Virus record (IMG/VR): IMGVR_UViG_3300031650_000001
Strand: one strand, 5' to 3'
Length of the DNA: 20,000 bases
Source of the DNA: an uncultured virus (IMG/VR IMGVR_UViG_3300031650_000001)
Lineage: Duplodnaviria; Heunggongvirae; Uroviricota; Caudoviricetes
Part shown: in pieces, positions 1,724 through 12,415 of the stretch
Layout: the number at the start of each line of letters is the position of its first letter
How positions within the stretch are numbered: position 1 is the first letter of the stretch
Program-made: the position numbers and the translations under genes
Notes under the pieces: model-generated
Seen by the model: the letters and a program-made list of their open reading frames with translations, nothing else
Databases searched by the model: none
Told to the model about the DNA's origin: nothing

Positions 1724-1948
1724 ATGGACAGCACATTGACCGAAGCCGCAAAGGCACTCGCGCGAATCCAGCGAATCGAGACCACGTACGCGAACCGTCT
1801 CACGAGACTGGACGCGGAGCGGGCCAAGAACATCACCGCGATCCTTGCCGGCGTCAGCAGCACCAAGGTACTCGACGTGATCCGCGTTGAGGACCCCCTG
1901 ATCGTCACCGAGTTCGGGCCGGTGAGCGATGACGGGGAGGAGTACTGA
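1724..1948 (+). CDS. hypothetical protein (74 aa)
   Basis: AGGAGG 1712-1717 before ATG 1724; TGATG overlap with the next gene. Confidence 0.8.
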   Translation: MDSTLTEAAKALARIQRIETTYANRLTRLDAERAKNITAILAGVSSTKVLDVIRVEDPLIVTEFGPVSDDGEEY

Positions 1949-2982
1949 TGGACCAGCCAGCAGTCAACGACGGACCGCGGAAAGCCGACCGTACCACCGA
2001 GGTCACTCACTTTCACGAAGCCGCCGAGTGGACGGGTCTCCGGATCACGGACTACGCTGCATGGTTGCACGCGCGCCGCGGCATTGTCACCGCGAGCCGG
2101 AGTGCTGCCCTGCTTGGCGAGTCACCCTTTGGTGATCCGCTCAGCGTCTACGCCGACATGGTGGCGCCGCAGCCCGTACCGGAACACGACGATCTAGCAC
2201 TCGATGACCCGCGCACATGGGGCAACGTTTTGGAGGAGCCGATCGCGCGCAAGGCCGCCGACTACTACCACTGGCAGATCATGATGGGTGGCGCCCTGCT
2301 CGTGTCCCGAAAGCATCCTCACCTCGGAGCGACCCTTGACGCGGAGATCTTGCCAGAGGGATCCGACGGTTGGCTCGTCTACGAAGGCAAGACGACAAAC
2401 GCTTGGCGCGCGCGGGATTGGGACGAAGCGAACGGTGTTCCGCCGACTCACATTCTGATCCAGGCGCAGCACCAACTCCTGGTGACTCAGGCTCCGGGCT
2501 GCGTGCTGTTCTGCCTCGCTGGCGGACAGAAACCGATCCGGGTCGACGTCGAGCCGGACGCGGAATTTCACGCGATGCTGATCGAAACCGTGGACGCATT
2601 CCTTGGCCGTGTCGTGGACTTAGACCCACCGCCCGCGACTGCGATCAGCGGTCCCGCTCTGAAGCAACTCCACCCGGAGGACGACGGCAGCACGGTCGCG
2701 CTCCCGGCCGATGCCGTCGAGTGGACCCGCGAACTCAACGCCATTGCTGAGCAGGTCAAGACACTCGACATGCGCGAGAAGGAACTCAAGAACCTACTGC
2801 GCCAGAGCATCGGGGACGCGCAGTATGGCGAGCTACCCGAAGAGGTTGCGGGCAAGGCGCGCTGGAAGTGGGGAACGACCCACGTTGCCGAGCGCACCCA
2901 ACACGTCAACGCCTACACCATGCGCGCGTTGCGTTTGGTCAAGGCGGCGAAGGAAACGAAACAACGGAGGCGCGGTGGATGA
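1948..2982 (+). CDS. YqaJ-like viral recombinase / lambda-exonuclease family 5'-3' exonuclease
   Basis: Motifs WLHARRGIVTAS, WGNVLEEPIA, GATLDA, YEGKT and IQAQHQL, followed by a C-terminal coiled coil. Confidence 0.9.
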   Translation: MDQPAVNDGPRKADRTTEVTHFHEAAEWTGLRITDYAAWLHARRGIVTASRSAALLGESPFGDPLSVYADMVAPQPVPEHDDLALDDPRTWGNVLEEPIARKAADYYHWQIMMGGALLVSRKHPHLGATLDAEILPEGSDGWLVYEGKTTNAWRARDWDEANGVPPTHILIQAQHQLLVTQAPGCVLFCLAGGQKPIRVDVEPDAEFHAMLIETVDAFLGRVVDLDPPPATAISGPALKQLHPEDDGSTVALPADAVEWTRELNAIAEQVKTLDMREKELKNLLRQSIGDAQYGELPEEVAGKARWKWGTTHVAERTQHVNAYTMRALRLVKAAKETKQRRRGG

Positions 2983-3161
2983 GCACACCGGCGTACGGAA
3001 TCAAACACTGGTGGCGCGCGGAACGGCGCGAAGGCGAAAGTCTGAAAGCATTCGCGCGCCGCTTTCTCCACCGACAACGACCCGGCTCCACTGAAATCAA
3101 AGGGACAGCGAACATCTGGCTAGCCCGCAAGGCAGCCCAAAAACGGAGGCACCGAGTATGA
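2979..3161 (+). CDS. small basic hypothetical protein (60 aa)
   Basis: ATGA overlaps at both ends; GGAGG upstream. Confidence 0.65.
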   Translation: MSTPAYGIKHWWRAERREGESLKAFARRFLHRQRPGSTEIKGTANIWLARKAAQKRRHRV

Positions 3162-4111
3162 CCCAAGCAGAAAACAACGCATCGATCGTGAAAGAGAACT
3201 TTGGCAGCACCGAACTGGAGGTGCGGCACGAGACCGCCGCCGGTGCGGTTGCCGCCCGTGCACGCGCCGAAGTCGAGGCCCGTTTCATCATGGCGATCAA
3301 GCGGCCGCGAAACATGGACGTGGTCCGCACCCGACTCCTGCATGAGTGCGAGCGCCCGGGGTTCGCGGAGGCTGCCCGGTATCACAAGCCGGTCGGCAAC
3401 GGAATCGAGGGCCCGTCGATCCGATTCGCGGAAGCCGCGATCCGGAACATGACCAACCTCGATGTCCAGTCACACACGACGTACGACGATCCGACCAAGC
3501 AGATCCTGTGCGTCACCGTGACCGACCTCGAATCCAACGCGACCTACTCGCAGGACGTCACGGTGCAGAAGACGGTCGAGCGCAACTCACTCGGGCGCGG
3601 GCAGAAGCCGCTCGGTCAGCGCACGAACTCGCGCGGTCAAACCGTCTACATCGTGCCAGCCACCGACGATGACATCCTGAACAAGACCAATGCGCTGATC
3701 TCCAAGGCGGTTCGCACGCTGGGGCTCCGACACCTTCCTGGTGACATCCTCGACGAGTGCATGGATCGGTGCATCGCCGTCACGAAGAAACGCGCCAAGG
3801 ACGACCCCGATCGGGAGCGCCTCAATCTGATCGATGCGTTCTTCGGAATCGGTGTCGAGCCTGACCAACTCGCGCGCTACATCGGCCACGACCCGAAGCA
3901 CCTGAACGAGTCGGAGCTACTGGAACTCCGCGCCGTCTACGCCACTGTGAAGCAGGGCGAGGCAACATGGGCGGAACTCCTGGAGCACAAGACCGGAACG
4001 CCAGTTGATGCCGCGGACAACGAGGCCGAAGCCAAGCGCCGCAGCGCAACGGCGGCCCTCGTCGAGAAGCAGAAGGCAAAGCAGGCGGAGAAGTCCAAGG
4101 GCAAGGACTGA
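3158..4111 (+). CDS. putative ssDNA-annealing recombinase (RecT-like) partnered with the exonuclease
   Basis: GGAGG RBS; follows the YqaJ gene; motifs ARAEVEARFIMAIKRPR and EGPSIRFAEAAIRNMTN recall, from memory, the Halo gp43-type phage annealases. Confidence 0.65.
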   Translation: MTQAENNASIVKENFGSTELEVRHETAAGAVAARARAEVEARFIMAIKRPRNMDVVRTRLLHECERPGFAEAARYHKPVGNGIEGPSIRFAEAAIRNMTNLDVQSHTTYDDPTKQILCVTVTDLESNATYSQDVTVQKTVERNSLGRGQKPLGQRTNSRGQTVYIVPATDDDILNKTNALISKAVRTLGLRHLPGDILDECMDRCIAVTKKRAKDDPDRERLNLIDAFFGIGVEPDQLARYIGHDPKHLNESELLELRAVYATVKQGEATWAELLEHKTGTPVDAADNEAEAKRRSATAALVEKQKAKQAEKSKGKD

Positions 4112-7374: not shown

Positions 7375-7839
7375 CTAGCGATTGTGCATCGGAGCCGCTT
7401 GCGCCGGCGGTGACTCAGCCGCCATCGTGATCGCGTACGTTGCCGCAGCCGTTCCGATCATGGCGCCGAGGACGATCCCGATCGTGCGCGCCGTCGTCGA
7501 ATCGAGCCAGCGATGCCGGCGCGATCGTGGTGCCAGCGAGTGTCCGTCGGAGTCATTGCGCAGGGCCCGCTTCATGGCATCGATCCGTTGCTGCTCGGTG
7601 ATCGCCTCGCGCCGTTGCGTGTTGTCCGGGTCGTGGTTGATTGTGCACCGGGTTTCGAGGACCCCAAGCCGCTCCTTGACGCCCTTGTATCCGGGCCCGC
7701 CGTTGATCTCCAGCCGGATTTCCTTGGCTACTTTGTGCGCCGCGGCGGCAGCGTTGGCGGCATCCTGGGCGGCCTTGAGCGTTGGAGCAACGGCGGACTC
7801 GATCAATCCCGTGAACTCTTGGCGATCGGCTGGGTTCAT
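7375..7839 (-). CDS. lysis-region membrane protein (154 aa; helical body, single C-terminal TM)
   Basis: ATG overlaps the GH25 stop; hydrophobic IGIVLGAMIGTAAATYAITMAA. Confidence 0.7.
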   Translation of the reverse strand: MNPADRQEFTGLIESAVAPTLKAAQDAANAAAAAHKVAKEIRLEINGGPGYKGVKERLGVLETRCTINHDPDNTQRREAITEQQRIDAMKRALRNDSDGHSLAPRSRRHRWLDSTTARTIGIVLGAMIGTAAATYAITMAAESPPAQAAPMHNR

Positions 7840-8549
7840 TGCTGGGGGTTCCTGACGGATGTGTCGATGGTGAGAGCGGTGATGTCTTCGATGCGTTCCA
7901 CTTCCCCCCGCGTTAGCCCCAACGGTCCCGGCTCCGGAACGAGGACTAGACTGTCGGCTAGATCCTGATCGATCGGCGCCCCATGCGTACCCGGGAGCGG
8001 ACCCACCTTGTTCTGCCAGATCAGGGCGTCGTTGTCGCCTGGCGTCGCCGGCTCCTTCACTCCCCAATGCGGCGTCCAAAGATGCGTGTCGAGTACCCAC
8101 TGCGGGCGGCCAAGTCGGACCCAATCGTACCGGGTGCAGTATGTCTGCGCCGCTCCGTAGTACTCCGTCAGCAGCGCGGAGAACTCCTGCGCGAGTGGAG
8201 ACCATAGCGGCGTCGGATCGCGTTGCCCTTCCGGTGCCCCCGGGTCGTGCTCAATGTCACAACTTGGGATGATGTCGCCCGGCTCGTAGCCCACCGCGTC
8301 GTCCGCCGCGGCGAATGCGTCGAACTGATCGGCAACGGATTGGTGGGCACGAAAGAAGTGATATCCGCCGACGCTCCAAGCTTCGCGGCGCGCATGCCTG
8401 ATGTGCTCGGCTGCGGCATGGTCGAAGGCGACCCCGTTCGTTAGCCGCACGATGATGAAGGTGACACCGGCTTCACTGAGCGCGGCATAGTCGAGGCCGC
8501 GGTTCCATTTGGATGCATCGATCCCAAGGCGTGCGGATGGCGCGGTCAC
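7836..8549 (-). CDS. endolysin, glycoside hydrolase family 25 muramidase
   Basis: GIDASKWN, GGYHFFR, DIE catalytic motif, LIWQ...IDQD. Confidence 0.92.
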   Translation of the reverse strand: MTAPSARLGIDASKWNRGLDYAALSEAGVTFIIVRLTNGVAFDHAAAEHIRHARREAWSVGGYHFFRAHQSVADQFDAFAAADDAVGYEPGDIIPSCDIEHDPGAPEGQRDPTPLWSPLAQEFSALLTEYYGAAQTYCTRYDWVRLGRPQWVLDTHLWTPHWGVKEPATPGDNDALIWQNKVGPLPGTHGAPIDQDLADSLVLVPEPGPLGLTRGEVERIEDITALTIDTSVRNPQQ

Positions 8550-9121
8550 GCTGCCCCCGGCGGCTCGGTGTCTGCGATCTCCAGTTCGCGCATCCGTTCG
8601 ACCGCCGCATCAAACCACGCGCTGAGATCGACGAAGTACGGGCGCTGCTTCAAGTGCGCGTAGTCTCGCAGGTCCCGCTCCTTTGCGCGCACGAGTCCAC
8701 CGGTCGTGTTGGCGTCGATGGTGAACAGCTGATGCCCGTCGCGCCGCACGAAGAGACAACCATGCTCAACGTGTGCACCGCCTTTGGAGTACGGGAAGAT
8801 CACAGCGTCGGAGAGTTGCGGATCCTTCGTTGTCGGCTCGTCACCGAAGACGCCGATGCAGTCACGCCAGACGCGGTCAGTGATGCCCTCTTCGATGAGC
8901 CAGGTCAGCAATGCGATCTGACAGTAGGACTTACCTTTTCGCGCTGCCGGCGTCGGGTAGCAGGGTGCGGCCACGTCAAAGAAGTGATCGCCACCCTTGG
9001 TGCCGACGTAGCTCTGGGCACGAGCCAGCACCCGGGCGCGGAGGTCGGCGACGGTGGGCAGGTCGAGGGGGTAAACCTCGTCGACGGGCGGTGGACTGAG
9101 TCGGTCTGGCGGCCTATTCAT
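8546..9121 (-). CDS. CHAP/NlpC-P60-like cell-wall peptidase or amidase (191 aa)
   Basis: VLARAQSYVG, YCQ (putative catalytic Cys), EHGCLF (His), TIDANT (TIEGNT-like); GAGG RBS before ATG 9121. Confidence 0.7.
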   Translation of the reverse strand: MNRPPDRLSPPPVDEVYPLDLPTVADLRARVLARAQSYVGTKGGDHFFDVAAPCYPTPAARKGKSYCQIALLTWLIEEGITDRVWRDCIGVFGDEPTTKDPQLSDAVIFPYSKGGAHVEHGCLFVRRDGHQLFTIDANTTGGLVRAKERDLRDYAHLKQRPYFVDLSAWFDAAVERMRELEIADTEPPGAA

Positions 9122-9144
9122 GCAGAAACCTCGGCAAATCCTGG

Positions 9145-9215
9145 CCAAAAACTTTTTTCGCGTGCGGTGTCGATTGTGCTGGACCGTGCCGTACAAGTGC
9201 CGTATCCTCTGATCA
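9145..9215 (+). promoter_or_regulatory. sigma70-like promoter with tandem operator driving the cassette island
   Basis: TGGACC 9180-9185, 17-nt spacer, TATCCT 9203-9208; A/T tract 9147-9158; GTGCCGTA direct repeat at 9186-9193 and 9197-9204. Confidence 0.6.
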
Positions 9216-9244
9216 TGACGACGACGGGAAACACGGAGGCCACC

Positions 9245-9505
9245 ATGAACACGACGATCACCGTTTCAGCCGAGCACGAGGGCAGCACCTACACCGCGAG
9301 CGCCGACTACGCGCACGCCAGCACGCCTAAACTGGTTCAGTTCACCCGCGATGGGGAGCCGGCTGGCCACGGGATTCTGGCCTGGCAGACGATCGACACT
9401 CGGGAGAATCGCCGTCCGACCACCGATGTCCCCGAGGATGCGATTGAGGCACTGGAGGACGCATTGCTGGCGGCCATGGGGCGTTACGCGCGCGAACACT
9501 CCTGA
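9245..9505 (+). CDS. island cassette ORF1, hypothetical (86 aa)
   Basis: GGAGG-CCACC-ATG; an in-frame ATG at 9215 coincides with the predicted transcription start. Confidence 0.8.
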   Translation: MNTTITVSAEHEGSTYTASADYAHASTPKLVQFTRDGEPAGHGILAWQTIDTRENRRPTTDVPEDAIEALEDALLAAMGRYAREHS

Positions 9506-9518
9506 GACCGCACCCCCA

Positions 9519-9560
9519 ACCCCGTCCAGCCCCGCACCGCAAGGCCGGGGCTTCGGCGGT
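9519..9560 (+). repeat. intergenic stem-loop repeat H1
   Basis: AGCCCCG-CA-CC-GCAA-GG-C-CGGGGCT with outer stem, immediately followed by AGGAGG. Confidence 0.85.
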
Positions 9561-9571
9561 AGGAGGCCACC

Positions 9572-9796
9572 ATGACGCTATTCAACCCCGACACCGACAA
9601 CCCCGGTCAGTGCAAGCACTGCAAGGCTTGGTTCACGCGCCGCGTTCCCGGCGACGAGGCTAGCAGTCGCGATCTAGAGCACCCCGAGTACTGCGCCGGA
9701 TGCGCGGGCCACTTGTTCGGAGATAGTGACCGCGGACCGACCATGGTTGTCCGCACCAATGAGAGCCACGACCCCAACGACTGGACGTTCCGCTGA
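9572..9796 (+). CDS. island cassette ORF2, putative Zn-binding protein (74 aa)
   Basis: AGGAGG RBS; CKHC...CAGC. Confidence 0.8.
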   Translation: MTLFNPDTDNPGQCKHCKAWFTRRVPGDEASSRDLEHPEYCAGCAGHLFGDSDRGPTMVVRTNESHDPNDWTFR

Positions 9797-9804
9797 AACG
9801 CCCC

Positions 9805-9850
9805 CGCCCCGTCCAGCCGCGCACCCCCACCGGGCCGCGGCTCAGGGGCG
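9805..9850 (+). repeat. intergenic stem-loop repeat H2
   Basis: AGCCGCG-CA-CCC-CCACC-GGG-C-CGCGGCT; outer CGCCCC/GGGGCG; followed by TAGGAGG. Confidence 0.85.
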
Positions 9851-9868
9851 TAGGAGGCACCGAATACC

Positions 9869-10207
9869 ATGACCGAAACCAACTACGACCCTGCCAACCT
9901 GACCCCAACCGGCGAGCTCATCTACACCGATTTCGTGGACGTCCCCGAGCTCCTGGGCTGCGACACTGCCGCGGAGTACGAGGCCGAATGCAACCTGCTC
10001 GACGACTGCTACACCCGCGGGTGTAGAGGCACGCCGTACACGATCTGGGCCCGACCGCCCTACGGTGGGGAGGCAGCTGGCGCGTACGCCGTCACGGGCA
10101 ACGACCTGCAGATCCTTGGCGGCTCGATCCCAGTGCCCGAGGACGTGGCCGAGATCATGCGCGCGGCGTGGGAGGAATACTGCGCGATGCCGAGGGACGA
10201 CGAGTAG
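9869..10207 (+). CDS. island cassette ORF3, acidic hypothetical protein (112 aa)
   Basis: AGGAGG RBS; Asp/Glu-rich. Confidence 0.8.
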   Translation: MTETNYDPANLTPTGELIYTDFVDVPELLGCDTAAEYEAECNLLDDCYTRGCRGTPYTIWARPPYGGEAAGAYAVTGNDLQILGGSIPVPEDVAEIMRAAWEEYCAMPRDDE

Positions 10208-10211
10208 ACCA

Positions 10212-10409
10212 ATGCCCGAAACCCTCACCGAACTCGCCGTGACCCTGGACAGCATCCCACCGCCTACCCGACAGCAACGCGAGGACCAGGCCCGGCGCGA
10301 TCAAGAAACCCAAGACCGGATCGACGCCTGGCACGCCAACCGCCGCTTGCACTGCCCGGAGGAGTACGACGGCAACGGCAACCATCTGCCGTTCGGGAGC
10401 TTCTGCTGA
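10212..10409 (+). CDS. island ORF4, hypothetical (65 aa)
   Basis: ATG 4 nt after the upstream TAG; stop directly precedes hairpin H3. Confidence 0.7.
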   Translation: MPETLTELAVTLDSIPPPTRQQREDQARRDQETQDRIDAWHANRRLHCPEEYDGNGNHLPFGSFC

Positions 10410-10417
10410 ACCCACCC

Positions 10418-10465
10418 CACCCCGCTCCACCCCGGCACCCGAGAGGGCCCGGGGCTGGGGCGGTG
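10418..10465 (+). repeat. intergenic stem-loop repeat H3
   Basis: CCGCTCCA-CCCCGG-CA-CCC-GAGA-GGG-C-CCGGGG-C-TGGGGCGG. Confidence 0.85.
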
Positions 10466-10501
10466 AACGACAGCAGATCTAGGATCTAGGAGGGTTTCGC
10501 C

Positions 10502-10516
10502 ATGCGATGCGGTTGA
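10502..10516 (+). other. 4-codon minigene (MRCG*) occupying a cassette slot
   Basis: AGGAGG 10488-10493, 8 nt, then ATG CGA TGC GGT TGA, directly followed by H4. Confidence 0.45.
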
Positions 10517-10519
10517 AAG

Positions 10520-10568
10520 ACCCGCCCCGTTCAGCCCGCCCGGTTTCGACTCGGCGGGCTTTCCGGGT
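10520..10568 (+). repeat. intergenic stem-loop repeat H4
   Basis: CCCCGTTC-AGCCCGCC-C-GGT-TTCG-ACT-C-GGCGGGCT-TTC-CGGGT then AGGAG. Confidence 0.8.
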
Positions 10569-10583
10569 AGGAGATAACGAACC

Positions 10584-10838
10584 ATGACCATCGACGATCG
10601 CCTAGCCGCCCAAGACGCCCCGACCGTGCGCGTGCAGCCGGCCGAAACCCTGACCCTCGGCACCGAATACCTGACCATGTGTACCGAGGCCCTCGGCTGC
10701 GAGCCGCTCACCGTCACCGACCACCGAGACGACCCCGACGCTCTGGAGTGCTACGCCGTGTGGGATCCCGAGTCCGGTGACAGCCCCGACGAGGCTGCCG
10801 AGGACGCGGTCCAGACCGTGAGGCGGTGGCAGCGATGA
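10584..10838 (+). CDS. island ORF5, highly acidic hypothetical protein (84 aa)
   Basis: AGGAG RBS; ATGA overlap with the next gene. Confidence 0.8.
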   Translation: MTIDDRLAAQDAPTVRVQPAETLTLGTEYLTMCTEALGCEPLTVTDHRDDPDALECYAVWDPESGDSPDEAAEDAVQTVRRWQR

Positions 10839-11026
10839 CCCTCCGCAAGCCCCCACCCAAGCCGGAGCCGCTGGACGGCCGGGTAGAGATTCGGGCCACG
10901 GCCGAGGAGACTCGCCGTTGGCGAATACTGGCCCGGGCCGATGGTCGGAGCCTGAGCAACTGGATCCGGGTCAAACTGAACCGGGAGACGGACCTGGTCC
11001 CGTACGGACTGGGCGACAAGCCCTAG
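10835..11026 (+). CDS. ribbon-helix-helix (Arc/CopG-like) DNA-binding protein (63 aa)
   Basis: RVEIRA strand, EETRRWRILARADG helix, RSLSNWIR second helix. Confidence 0.8.
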   Translation: MTLRKPPPKPEPLDGRVEIRATAEETRRWRILARADGRSLSNWIRVKLNRETDLVPYGLGDKP

Positions 11027-11041
11027 CCCCTAAGCCGCCCC

Positions 11042-11887
11042 CTAACGCCGTTTCGCCCCGGACGACCTAGCGCCCGCCGGACCTGCCCAGAGGACGACAG
11101 CCGGCGGCACAGGGGCGGGACCGGGGAGACCCACGGGACCGGCGTCCAGTGCGCTGGCGTTCAGGGATGGGGCGGAGGGCCGGGACATGATGCGCAGCTC
11201 GAGAGCTATCAGCGCGTCGCCGTGCAATCCTCTGCCGATGCCTCGCCATGCCCTGTGGTAGGTAGCGAGGCGGGCAGTCACCCAGGACTGCTCAACCAAA
11301 TCGCACCGAGACCCGGATCCGTAGCTGGAAATAGCACTGGCAAACCACTTGCCGCCATGTGATCGGCAGCGGCATCGGGCACGGGTCAGCAGGATCGCCC
11401 CGGCACGGTAGCAGCGCTCCAAAGCGTCGGTTCCACCCACTAGGTCATCGAGCCGGTACCCGGTGACTCCAACCGAATCCGGGTGGATCTGGACCGAGCA
11501 AACCTCGCCCGCTGCCCCGCGGAGCTCTCCCGTCTCCACCACTGACCATAGGCCAGATTCGTGCCGAGCGATGGTGGCGAGCGTAGCCACCATCTCAGCT
11601 GTAGAGCCACCCCACGATGGCGGCGGGTCGACGGCTACGCTGGCAATGGCCTCGGCGTGCAGGACGTAGCGCGAGAGCCCCTCTGCCCTGGTTTCCGCCC
11701 TGGTCCAGCCAAGCCAGGACGCTCCGCGGGACGAGTAATCTAGTCTCGGTGCCCACAGATCACCCGATGGCGCCCACTGCCGCACCTCCGGATACGAGGG
11801 TACGCGGCTCATGTCCGTCACCCCGGGATGCGCTATCGCCAGGATCGCCTCTAGCGCGAGGCGAATCGTCCCACCAAGACAAGCCAT
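11042..11887 (-). CDS. lysozyme-fold / lytic transglycosylase-like protein
   Basis: IARHESG (catalytic ES), CSVQI (GxxQ-like), AISSYGSG (AYNAG-like); start position uncertain. Confidence 0.65.
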   Translation of the reverse strand: MACLGGTIRLALEAILAIAHPGVTDMSRVPSYPEVRQWAPSGDLWAPRLDYSSRGASWLGWTRAETRAEGLSRYVLHAEAIASVAVDPPPSWGGSTAEMVATLATIARHESGLWSVVETGELRGAAGEVCSVQIHPDSVGVTGYRLDDLVGGTDALERCYRAGAILLTRARCRCRSHGGKWFASAISSYGSGSRCDLVEQSWVTARLATYHRAWRGIGRGLHGDALIALELRIMSRPSAPSLNASALDAGPVGLPGPAPVPPAVVLWAGPAGARSSGAKRR

Positions 11888-12116
11888 TCGCGGACCCTAA
11901 CACAGGGGCGGAGCGGCGCAGATATCCGAGCGTCCCCGGTCCCGCTGCGCCATCGGGGGAGTCTGCGGATCCGGCCGTATAGGGCCGGACATTCCCAGGG
12001 CAAGGGTGATCTGTATTTGGCCCGGTCTAAGGCGGAACCGGTACACAAATGCCGCGATTTGCCGCGGGCGTGACCGATCTGCTGAGGGCCCCGGTCTAAG
12101 CGAGCGGCCGGACAAC

Positions 12117-12145
12117 TTGACCCCGGCCGGCCAGTGCCTTAGACT
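12117..12145 (+). promoter_or_regulatory. sigma70-like promoter for the zinc-finger gene
   Basis: TTGACC 12117-12122, 17-nt spacer, TAGACT 12140-12145. Confidence 0.7.
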
Positions 12146-12166
12146 AGTGGCGTGAGGTTGCTCAAG

Positions 12167-12415
12167 ATGAACCCGACCCGACAGCCGCCACCGGCCCCGA
12201 CCGTGCTCTGCGATGAGTGCGGTTCGGCCATGGTGCTGTCGGTGGGGCCCGGGCGCATGCGGGACTACCGCGGCCGGTCCGGGTACGAACTCCCGGCCGA
12301 TCTCGCTTTCCCACGGTGCCCCGAGTGCGGAGCCGAGTGGATGACGTCGTCGCAAATCGACCGGCTGTCGGAGCACCTCGAACGGCAGCGGCGTCGGCGG
12401 ATCAGGGCGATCTAA
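12167..12415 (+). CDS. stand-alone YgiT/MqsA-type zinc-finger protein (82 aa)
   Basis: CDECGSAMV...DYRG...RCPECGAEWMT; GAGG RBS; no HTH domain. Confidence 0.7.
   Translation: MNPTRQPPPAPTVLCDECGSAMVLSVGPGRMRDYRGRSGYELPADLAFPRCPECGAEWMTSSQIDRLSEHLERQRRRRIRAI

Follow-up and report, generated by a model that had tools for sequence, protein, structure and literature searches.

In a 20,000-nt stretch of DNA from an uncultured tailed virus (IMG/VR record IMGVR_UViG_3300031650_000001; this whole stretch is called the window below), which is part of a high-GC (60 to 68%) tailed-phage-like contig, a compact array of small genes occupies positions 9180 to 11026 of the plus strand. It consists of a promoter-like head, six small open reading frames (ORFs), the last of which encodes a ribbon-helix-helix (RHH)-like protein, and a 4-codon minigene, and four of its junctions carry hairpins of one family. 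The original prediction for this DNA, made from the sequence alone, had described a self-contained array of six unrelated small ORFs and a minigene on the strand opposite to the flanking genes. ORF calls and a pairwise blastp comparison of the six ORFs (E < 0.01), in which no two were alike, agree with that description. The observation is confirmed here and extended to a small family of such arrays in unrelated phages.

Five of the six array products are acidic (pI 4.1 to 5.4) and the last is basic. ORF1 ends at 9505 and encodes a protein of pI 4.8 without a family, with 86 amino acids (aa) when read from the ATG at 9245, which has GGAGG ahead of it, or 96 aa when read from the ATG at 9215. 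ORF2 (9572 to 9796; 74 aa) contains a CxxC...CxxC motif and shares 74% identity with ORFb of a second array, in the IMG/VR record G001 described below; the alignment search with ORF2 returned G001 alone, plus two short chance-like matches. No relatives were found for ORF3 (9869 to 10207; 112 aa, pI 4.1), for which ESM Atlas gave no usable match and IMG/VR one weak 40-residue match. ORF4 (10212 to 10409; 65 aa) begins 4 nt after ORF3, with no hairpin between the two. The minigene (10503 to 10517; ATG CGA TGC GGT TGA) would encode Met-Arg-Cys-Gly behind a strong ribosome-binding site (RBS), AGGAGGG, within 10488 to 10517, and contigs spanning this region occur in other samples. ORF5 (10584 to 10838; 84 aa, pI 4.1) is overlapped through ATGA by the last gene (10835 to 11026; 63 aa, pI 10.5), which encodes the RHH-like protein. 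Searches of the array ORFs against PADLOC and NCBIfam gave no matches, Pfam gave weak rows under the curated cutoffs for ORF2 and ORF4, and the single PHROGs match was a weak one, between ORF5 and a family of unknown function (E value of 0.00085).

The hairpin linkers, H1 to H4, all lie on the plus strand and share one order: a stop codon, a C-rich tract (3 to 14 nt), an outer stem of about 5 pairs, a small internal loop, and an inner stem that begins with AGCC and ends with GGCU around a variable but complementary top, followed by an apical stem of 2 to 3 pairs and a 4-nt loop. The inner-stem variants are AGCC followed by CCG, GCG, or CGCC, each with a matching 3' arm. H1 with its Shine-Dalgarno (SD) sequence (9513 to 9566; 58.8 bits in the covariance-model search) has an outer stem, an internal loop, the inner stem AGCCCCG/CGGGGCU, and a GCAA loop, and its basal pairs take in the GGAGG. 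H2 with its SD (9800 to 9858) has the inner stem AGCCGCG/CGCGGCU, and H4 with its SD (10522 to 10571) has the inner stem AGCCCGCC/GGCGGGCU and a UUCG tetraloop. The SD lies within a few bases of the hairpin in these three copies. H3 (10422 to 10463) is a diverged copy in which 14 bp form an uninterrupted stem, topped by a small apical stem with a GAGA tetraloop, and it has no abutting RBS in the window.

The minimum free energies (MFEs) of H1 to H4 are -29.4, -37.8, -44.8, and -28.8 kcal/mol, with z-scores of -1.65, -3.20, -1.95, and -2.14, and an equal or better fold was reached by 14, 0, 4, and 4 of 200 shuffles, respectively. When the plus strand of the whole window was folded in sliding 50-nt segments (mean, -13.3; standard deviation [SD of the fold values], 4.3), the values at H1 to H4 were -25.6, -30.6, -34.1, and -27.3, which is 2.9 to 4.8 standard deviations under the mean, with H3 as the minimum of the strand. 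The 12-mer of the 5' arm, CCCCGTYCAGCC, occurs in three exact copies, all on the plus strand and within gaps of the array, against 0.01 expected, and none of 200 shuffles reached three. The same 12-mer with up to two mismatches was not enriched (9 against 7.0 expected), so that H3, which reads CCCCGCTCCACC, is a diverged copy recognized through its structure and a covariance model. The prediction that four junctions carry a conserved hairpin therefore stands, since all four fold and the 12-mer is enriched, with direct abutment to an RBS at H1, H2, and H4. It had also not recognized the repeat as a described family, and Rfam gave no matches at E values up to 1 in 8500 to 11500.

Megablast and blastn searches with the array and tblastn searches with the two flank proteins gave nothing in the phage collection, and the flank proteins had no relatives in IMG/VR or in GTDB genomes. 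Aligned sequences of the tail-flank protein were used to scan metagenomes, and this yielded L022, a 2.6-kb metagenome fragment with 95% identity to the window over the flank and the RHH-like gene. H3 is kept in L022, where the RBS of a new 81-aa ORF follows its 3' arm directly; this ORF stands in place of window positions 10456 to 10581, the segment containing the minigene, H4, and the H4 RBS. ORF5 of L022 has an internal in-frame difference, giving 47 aa against 84 aa in the window with both termini kept, and between it and the RHH-like gene there is an extra 90-aa ORF with a 9-bp repeat, CGATGACCC, at the stop/start (ATGA) overlaps on both sides. For ORF5, the representative search yielded the cluster to which it belongs, the form present in L022, and long proteins of repetitive sequence. 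In the window segment that is absent from L022, a tandem duplication, ATCTAGG ATCTAGG, lies at 10474 to 10491 just 5' of the minigene RBS.

The IMG/VR search with ORF2 yielded G001, a complete 47.6-kb record with terminal repeats. G001 carries sheath and baseplate genes and is therefore a different kind of phage. Its array lies on the plus strand amid minus-strand genes, in the order promoter region, ORFa, hairpin, ORFb, hairpin, ORFc, hairpin, ORFd, hairpin, and ORFe, after which ORFf, whose N terminus is like that of ORF5, and three more ORFs follow without hairpins. The sole blastn match between the window and G001 (9530 to 9873 against 36893 to 37241; 72% identity) comprises the 3' half of H1, ORF2, H2, and the next RBS and ATG, and the ORFs on both sides of this block are unrelated. 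Within it, the 27-nt core of H2 has two adjacent differences from the G001 copy and is conserved better than the coding part; a pattern search with this core found G001 only. No RHH homologue was found in G001 (best tblastn E value of 0.25). One ORF of the G001 array (38586 to 39104; L028 4647 to 5165) has a below-threshold match to Imm5_like, a putative immunity family (E value of 7.8e-5; 23.0 bits, with a cutoff of 25). The differences in gene content among relatives that had been foreseen are thus present, as a swap after H3 in L022 and as a single shared block, that of ORF2, in G001.

Signs of selection at the RNA level were sought in nine copies (four from the window, one from L022, and four from G001), from which the covariance model was also built. 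In these copies, 79.8% of the cells pair against 68.4% in shuffles (reached by 0 of 500), and 6 of the 10 model pairs change on both sides with pairing kept. The covariation score is 0.297 against 0.144 in shuffles (1 of 500 reached it), and slid registers score lower. MAFFT with RNAalifold misregisters some hairpin rows, and the alignment fitted to the model retained the same register, so that the pair and covariation figures are conservative. All nine apical loops have 4 nt (GCAA three times, GAGA, GCGA, UUCG twice, and CACC/ACCC). Loops of the GNRA or UNCG type are found in 7 of the 9 copies, or 8 of 12 when the three copies of a further array, G002, are added, against a background of 5 to 6% among the other short-stemmed 4-nt loops of the window and G001. 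This tetraloop character is seen on the sense strand only, as the opposite strand gives no special loops. In seven of the nine copies, (G)TAGGAGG or CAGGAGG lies 5 to 11 nt ahead of an ATG.

In the window, the covariance model finds H1 to H4 only, H3 scoring 53.9 bits while being itself among the model-building sequences, and in G001 the four array copies are significant, with two other rows at E values of 0.6 to 0.8. G002, a 47.3-kb IMG/VR record, was obtained with a loose pattern of the 3' arm plus RBS and then the covariance model, which finds three copies in it, in the array only. All hairpin copies in the arrays of the window, G001, and G002 lie on the sense strand. The G002 cargo is unrelated to that of the other arrays except for an RHH-like gene at the array head, with 47% identity to that of the window over 36 residues; two copies of a promoter with window-like geometry are present, and a 5-codon minigene (Met-Arg-Arg-Ala-Gly) with a strong RBS lies between two hairpins (L059, around 1673 to 1656, minus strand). 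Both minigenes might be remnants of collapsed cassettes, serve as leaders in coupling, or have some effect in their own right.

Five other IMG/VR records, preselected with a pattern that fixes the 3' arm, each contain one near-identical hairpin-RBS unit with a UUCG loop and the 3' arm GGGGGCUUUCGGCGUAGGAGG (L095, 1461 to 1529; L055, 1494 to 1560; L043, 1501 to 1561; L096, 1501 to 1558; L049, 1494 to 1562). They lie in nonstructural regions, beside genes of unknown function or an endonuclease gene, and three of the five follow homologous PHROG 29260 genes ending in ...YGPL(T/R)(R/K)(I/V). The covariance-model search proposed with the original prediction, run with copies of the H1-to-H4 family, recognizes the array copies in G001 and G002 and these single units. 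A stricter pattern, CCCCGTYCAGCC...GGCT...TAGGAG, gave no match in IMG/VR and 21 in GTDB genomes, 14 of them representing one conserved coding stretch of Acidimicrobiales-type metagenome-assembled genomes and the rest isolated chance matches on reading. A covariance-model match in the record L023 (E value of 0.067) was rejected as unlike the family on inspection. L023 has only a homologue (41%) of the gene at 11042 to 11887 and says nothing on the array as an insertion.

We compared contigs of four other runs from the same habitat type over 8400 to 12200, using assembled contigs instead of reads and leaving aside stretches of runs X3 to X5 that no contig covered. Run X2 has the same sequence nearly throughout. 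Among the matches listed for the other runs, 12 of 24 loose ends fall in the four linkers, and the H3 core is seen with foreign flanks on both sides in two runs. One run shows H2 at several-fold higher depth. In one contig, 9233 is connected to 9866 through 14 other letters, which skips ORF1, H1, ORF2, and H2 and places ORF3 directly behind the promoter region. These contigs show that the hairpin exists in other contexts, not how it arrived there. By a hand count over the comparisons with L022 and G001, 4 of 8 boundaries lie in a hairpin-RBS linker, which is an excess, as the linkers make up about 12% of the array. The ORF2 block and the swap after H3 lend partial support to an exchange of cassettes.

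A candidate sigma-A-type promoter heads the array (9180 to 9214, plus strand), with TGGACC at 9180 to 9185, a 17-nt spacer, TATCCT at 9203 to 9208, and 6 nt before the ATG at 9215. A generic consensus scan of 8500 to 11500 called no promoter, the site at 9180 having 8 of 12 hexamer matches where 9 are needed. The promoter claimed by the original prediction is retained as a candidate because its geometry matches that of related arrays, and not on the generic scan. In the four array heads (one each in the window and G001 and two in G002), a -35-like hexamer, 17 nt, a -10 hexamer of the TANNNT/CATACT type, and 6 nt were recognized by eye; the hexamers are TTGCAC and CATACT in G001, and TTGCGT and CATAAT with CATACT in G002. 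An ATG follows the 6 nt in the window and in both G002 heads, and the G001 head has ATA at that position and an SD-led ATG 19 nt further. The ATG at 9215 is in frame with ORF1, for which it offers an alternative start of leaderless geometry, and the start ATGACGACGACG at 9215 is common to the first cassette gene of G002. This arrangement suggests that the transcripts are leaderless or nearly so.

The spacer of the window promoter is filled by a direct repeat, GTGCCGTA, at 9186 to 9193 and 9197 to 9204 (11-nt spacing), a candidate operator of the RHH-like protein. In G002, both promoters carry an inverted repeat, TGCGTCCG-N7-CGGACGCA, across the -35 and -10 hexamers, beside the homologous RHH-like gene. 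We infer that the RHH-like protein binds these repeats as candidate operators. The AF2 model of the 63-aa protein (mean pLDDT of 66.6) has helices at residues 23 to 36 and 40 to 52 after a short N-terminal extended stretch, RVEIR. Most of its top Foldseek rows are RHH repressors or antitoxins (TM scores of 0.5 to 0.6; root mean square deviations of 1.2 to 2 Å), all with E values of about 1, and no Pfam match or PDB sequence match was found. With weak fold matches and no sequence family, we call the protein RHH-like only, so that the RHH regulator of the original prediction is retained at the level of fold. The last gene product is probably an RHH-like DNA-binding protein that represses the array promoter. 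AcrIF25 also appeared beside this protein, as a chance-level row (E value of 0.97 in the PDB sequence search and 0.8 to 3 in Foldseek).

Outside the array, plus-strand genes occupy the window up to about 7,100, among them a YqaJ/RecE-like exonuclease (Pfam, PHROGs), and a minus-strand block runs from 19,921 to 7,375 with a LamG-domain protein, several unknowns, and a GH25 lysin (Pfam, PHROGs), broken by the plus-strand stretch at 9,122 to 11,041. The exonuclease (PHROG 434; E value of 7e-57) is followed by a 317-aa PHROG 3657 protein of unknown function (both within 1948 to 4111, plus strand), and the two may form a recombination pair able to act on short homologies such as the linkers. On the left side of the array, a gene at 8546 to 9121 (minus strand), reading away from the array, encodes a CHAP/NlpC-P60-like hydrolase by its ESM Atlas features (0.96) and structure (TM scores of 0.61 to 0.69), with no sequence match in Pfam, NCBIfam, or PDB. 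The CHAP neighbor that had been predicted is thus upheld by features and structure and lacks a sequence-family match. With the GH25 lysin gene downstream of it (7836 to 8549, minus strand), it forms a split lysin. A listed 276-aa ORF (7375 to 8205, minus strand) shares 370 nt with the GH25 gene, read in a different frame; given the hydrophobic stretch in its C-terminal part, the true gene is probably a shorter, holin-like ORF with a downstream start. After the last minus-strand gene, where the strand blocks converge, there is a canonical terminator (7361 to 7312, minus strand) with a perfect GC-rich stem and TTTTT, which indicates that the host of the phage uses U-tract terminators, unlike the array hairpins.

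On the right, a 281-aa gene (11042 to 11887, minus strand) converges with the array and encodes a conserved motif, RHES...GEVC.VQ.HP. It had been taken for a transglycosylase, a name we do not keep, because there is no Pfam or PDB profile match and the weak GH23-like match comes from a low-confidence structure model. The placement within a lysis module accordingly holds for one flank, with its CHAP and GH25 pair, and not for the other, where the gene is left unnamed. Five relatives of the 281-aa protein stop near residue 230, and the approximately 50 C-terminal residues of the window protein (11042 to 11197), with pLDDT values below 50, have no counterpart in them. The reading frame may run into array-borne sequence, and the right edge of the array would then lie at about 11,197.

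The explanation that we favor, and consider somewhat more likely than not, is that the array is a hypervariable accessory operon whose hairpin-plus-RBS linkers work as RNA signals between cistrons and probably double as patches of homology at which cassettes are exchanged. A promoter of its own would drive the array in the direction opposite to the flanking late genes, with the mRNA starting at or just ahead of the first ATG and with the small RHH-like protein of the last gene probably repressing the promoter. Its cistrons are joined by composite linkers made of a stop codon, a C-rich tract, a two-tier tetraloop-capped hairpin, and an immediate SD. The special tetraloops are confined to the sense strand, and this is the main reason for placing the function in the mRNA of the array itself, where the hairpins would most likely act as attenuators, processing sites, or 3'-end protectors and so set the relative mRNA amounts of the cistrons. 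PMC9045158 and PMC10311766 offer precedents of intercistronic stem-loops and internal terminators that set operon stoichiometry. Each linker would supply a ready RBS to any gene placed behind it. As the linkers are alike while the genes are not, they may also be short homology patches through which gene-and-hairpin units are swapped, lost, and gained between phages.

Several observations weigh against this explanation. The hairpin copies are few, and three pairs of them are positionally homologous (H3 and the L022 H3, H1 and hp1, and H2 and hp2), so that the tetraloop and covariation counts suggest more independent events than there were; in addition, the covariance model was made from the same nine copies that it supports. 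RNA runs were looked for among the listed sequencing runs, and there were none. The terminator scan (5 T in 8 required) calls none of H1 to H4, and only 1 to 3 U follow the inner stem. The junctions ORF3/ORF4, ORF5/RHH, and, in G001, ORFe/ORFf have no hairpin. The array-only distribution in the window phage rests on 20 kb of its 71-kb contig, and the five single units indicate that the linker family is wider than the arrays and the element not exclusive to them. The predicted role of the repeat as a recombination joint agrees with the boundaries that fall in linkers, but the other 4 of the 8 are free of hairpins (the in-frame indel inside ORF5 and the extra ORF at the ATGA overlap with the 9-bp repeat). 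Boundaries at gene ends are in any case common in phage mosaics and favored by selection for intact genes. Loose ends at hairpins are equally expected from a plain multicopy repeat, and the joints are short-sided (32 nt) and come from assembled contigs.

Two other explanations also place the hairpins in mRNA. In one, which we regard as unlikely but worth keeping in mind, they mediate translational coupling: the C-rich tract after the stop codon would pair with the next SD, and a ribosome terminating upstream, or on a minigene, would melt the hairpin base. The MFE folds pair GGAGG with the upstream C-rich tract at H1, H2, H4, and the four G001 copies, with the paired tract beginning 3 to 14 nt past the stop codon by reading of the folds, and only 4 nt separate the end of the window minigene from the base of H4. 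PMC8092293 outlines a precedent, in which a stem-loop that masks an RBS is under the control of a small intergenic ORF. However, such pairing is cheap between C-rich and G-rich tracts at 65% GC; the SD pairing probability of 0.49 to 0.98 at the hairpin junctions compares with a mean of 0.62 at 22 other G001 genes, the window genes being similar, and the G002 minigene stops about 100 nt before the next hairpin. Somewhat less likely still, in our view, is that the hairpins are plain intrinsic terminators of the kind found at ordinary high-GC gene ends. GNRA and UUCG loops are said to be common in terminators, the array hairpins have GC-rich stems with such loops, a short U(U)(U)C follows most inner stems, and near-identical single units stand at gene ends in other phage records. 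Yet there is no run of five U, and the scan that calls no terminator here was applied to a window that has a canonical U-tract terminator elsewhere. The lack of a U run and of a terminator call makes efficient intrinsic termination unlikely, and as no promoter-like site follows any hairpin, full termination would silence the 4 to 5 downstream genes, all of which have strong RBSs.

The cassette aspect could be taken further, in a reading to which we give a minor chance, similar to that of coupling: the arrays would be an integron-like cassette system without an integrase, in which units move between unrelated phages via the linkers, perhaps by the RecE/RecT-type enzymes of the phages, with counter-defense or host takeover genes assembled as cargo behind one regulated promoter and the recurrent minigenes as empty or collapsed cassettes that keep the linker. 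A true integron-like system, with the hairpins as folded single-strand attC-like sites for a dedicated recombinase, is in contrast highly improbable. It would fit the single promoter, the promoterless cassettes with an imperfect hairpin of conserved base and variable top at their 3' ends, and the differences in gene content, and possibly order, between relatives. The integron inverse core and core sites have the consensus RYYYAAC and GTTRRRY, and no sites of this type are visible at the hairpin bases in the nine aligned copies. No integrase or site-specific recombinase was found among the 28 window proteins or the array proteins of G001 and G002, several junctions are free of hairpins, and stable RNA tetraloops on one strand argue for RNA. 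We attach equally little weight to the idea that the inverted repeats are operators bound in double-stranded DNA by the RHH-like or another regulator, although an RHH-like gene is present in two of the three arrays and the discussion of SAS/ESAS repeats in PMC3203893 left protein binding open for them. The arms vary yet stay complementary, a kind of variation that a DNA-binding protein shared by all copies would not accept; in G001, with its four hairpins, tblastn found no RHH homologue; and the promoters contain better operator candidates.

If the operon with exchangeable linkers that we favor is real, the combination of an RNA motif of about 50 nt, the promoter geometry, and a small RHH gene would be a searchable flag for hypervariable accessory islands. 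Such islands would be places to seek new anti-defense or host takeover proteins in high-GC phages, whose small genes are nearly unannotated; an anti-host role of the small proteins in the present arrays is likewise conceivable. The idea that regulatory repeats double as shuffling joints would then extend beyond T4-like phages, with an RBS replacing the promoter.

Some features of the array recall known phage systems. The early transcript of T7 has long, imperfect RNase III hairpins, each interrupted by an internal loop, between its small genes, and cleavage leaves a protective 3' hairpin on the upstream message. The array hairpins are shorter (about 16 to 22 pairs, including weak basal ones) and unrelated in sequence. 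Anti-defense operons of the acr-aca type combine a strong promoter with genes for several short, often acidic proteins without a family and for a small DNA-binding repressor. The array also has a promoter-like head, small and mostly acidic proteins, and an RHH-like gene, but none of its ORFs matches a known family.

Closest in function and setting are the promoter-early stem-loops (PeSLs) of T4-type phages. As PMC2839356 and PMC4122927 describe them, these units are repeated between small ORFan genes of a hypervariable region; the insertions, deletions, and replacements that distinguish close relatives stop at them, and homologous recombination between units has been proposed. The array similarly has short, conserved, composite stem-loop units repeated among the small ORFans of a hypervariable region. 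Each PeSL, by the same accounts, includes a sigma-70-like early promoter and a stem-loop that terminates transcription effectively (PMC2839356, PMC4122927), whereas the array has one promoter, no promoter-like site in or after the hairpins (8500 to 11500), and no U-tract. The partner of the hairpin is an SD in the array and a promoter in PeSLs, and the array is found in high-GC phages, while PeSLs belong to T4-like phages of Gram-negative bacteria.

By its layout and host group, the array comes nearest to the SAS/ESAS repeats, which PMC3203893 and PMC7302621 report for Cluster K mycobacteriophages, with similar motifs in the Microbacterium phage clusters EF and EG. Both are imperfect inverted repeats with a variable spacer, located in an unusually long gap just upstream of an RBS motif and start codon, associated with varied gene families, conserved across related phages, and without a known function; the inverted-repeat layout directly upstream of the RBS motif corresponds to that used to define SAS/ESAS (4- to 13-bp spacer), in layout only. 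SAS repeats occur in 11 to 19 copies genome-wide, whereas the hairpins number 4, 4, and 3 in the 20-kb window, G001, and G002 and are confined to the arrays. The SAS sequence is 5'-GGGATAGGAGCCC, and that of the array is G(G/C)(G/C)GTAGGAGG or GGGCAGGAGG. The SAS is a conserved asymmetric motif of 13 bp that covers the RBS shortly ahead of the start codon; the (G)TAGGAGG or CAGGAGG of seven of the nine array copies is placed in this manner, with a sequence other than the SAS consensus. In PMC3203893, the Cluster K authors saw little support for an RNA hairpin, as departures from the repeat were not compensatory; the array hairpins, in contrast, show two-sided changes and tetraloops. With its clear covariation and few copies, the array offers a test case for the function of SAS/ESAS-like repeats. 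In searches of a full-text library, which does not extend to subscription journals, we found no earlier description of such hairpin arrays in actinophages. The array belongs to neither the PeSLs nor SAS/ESAS.

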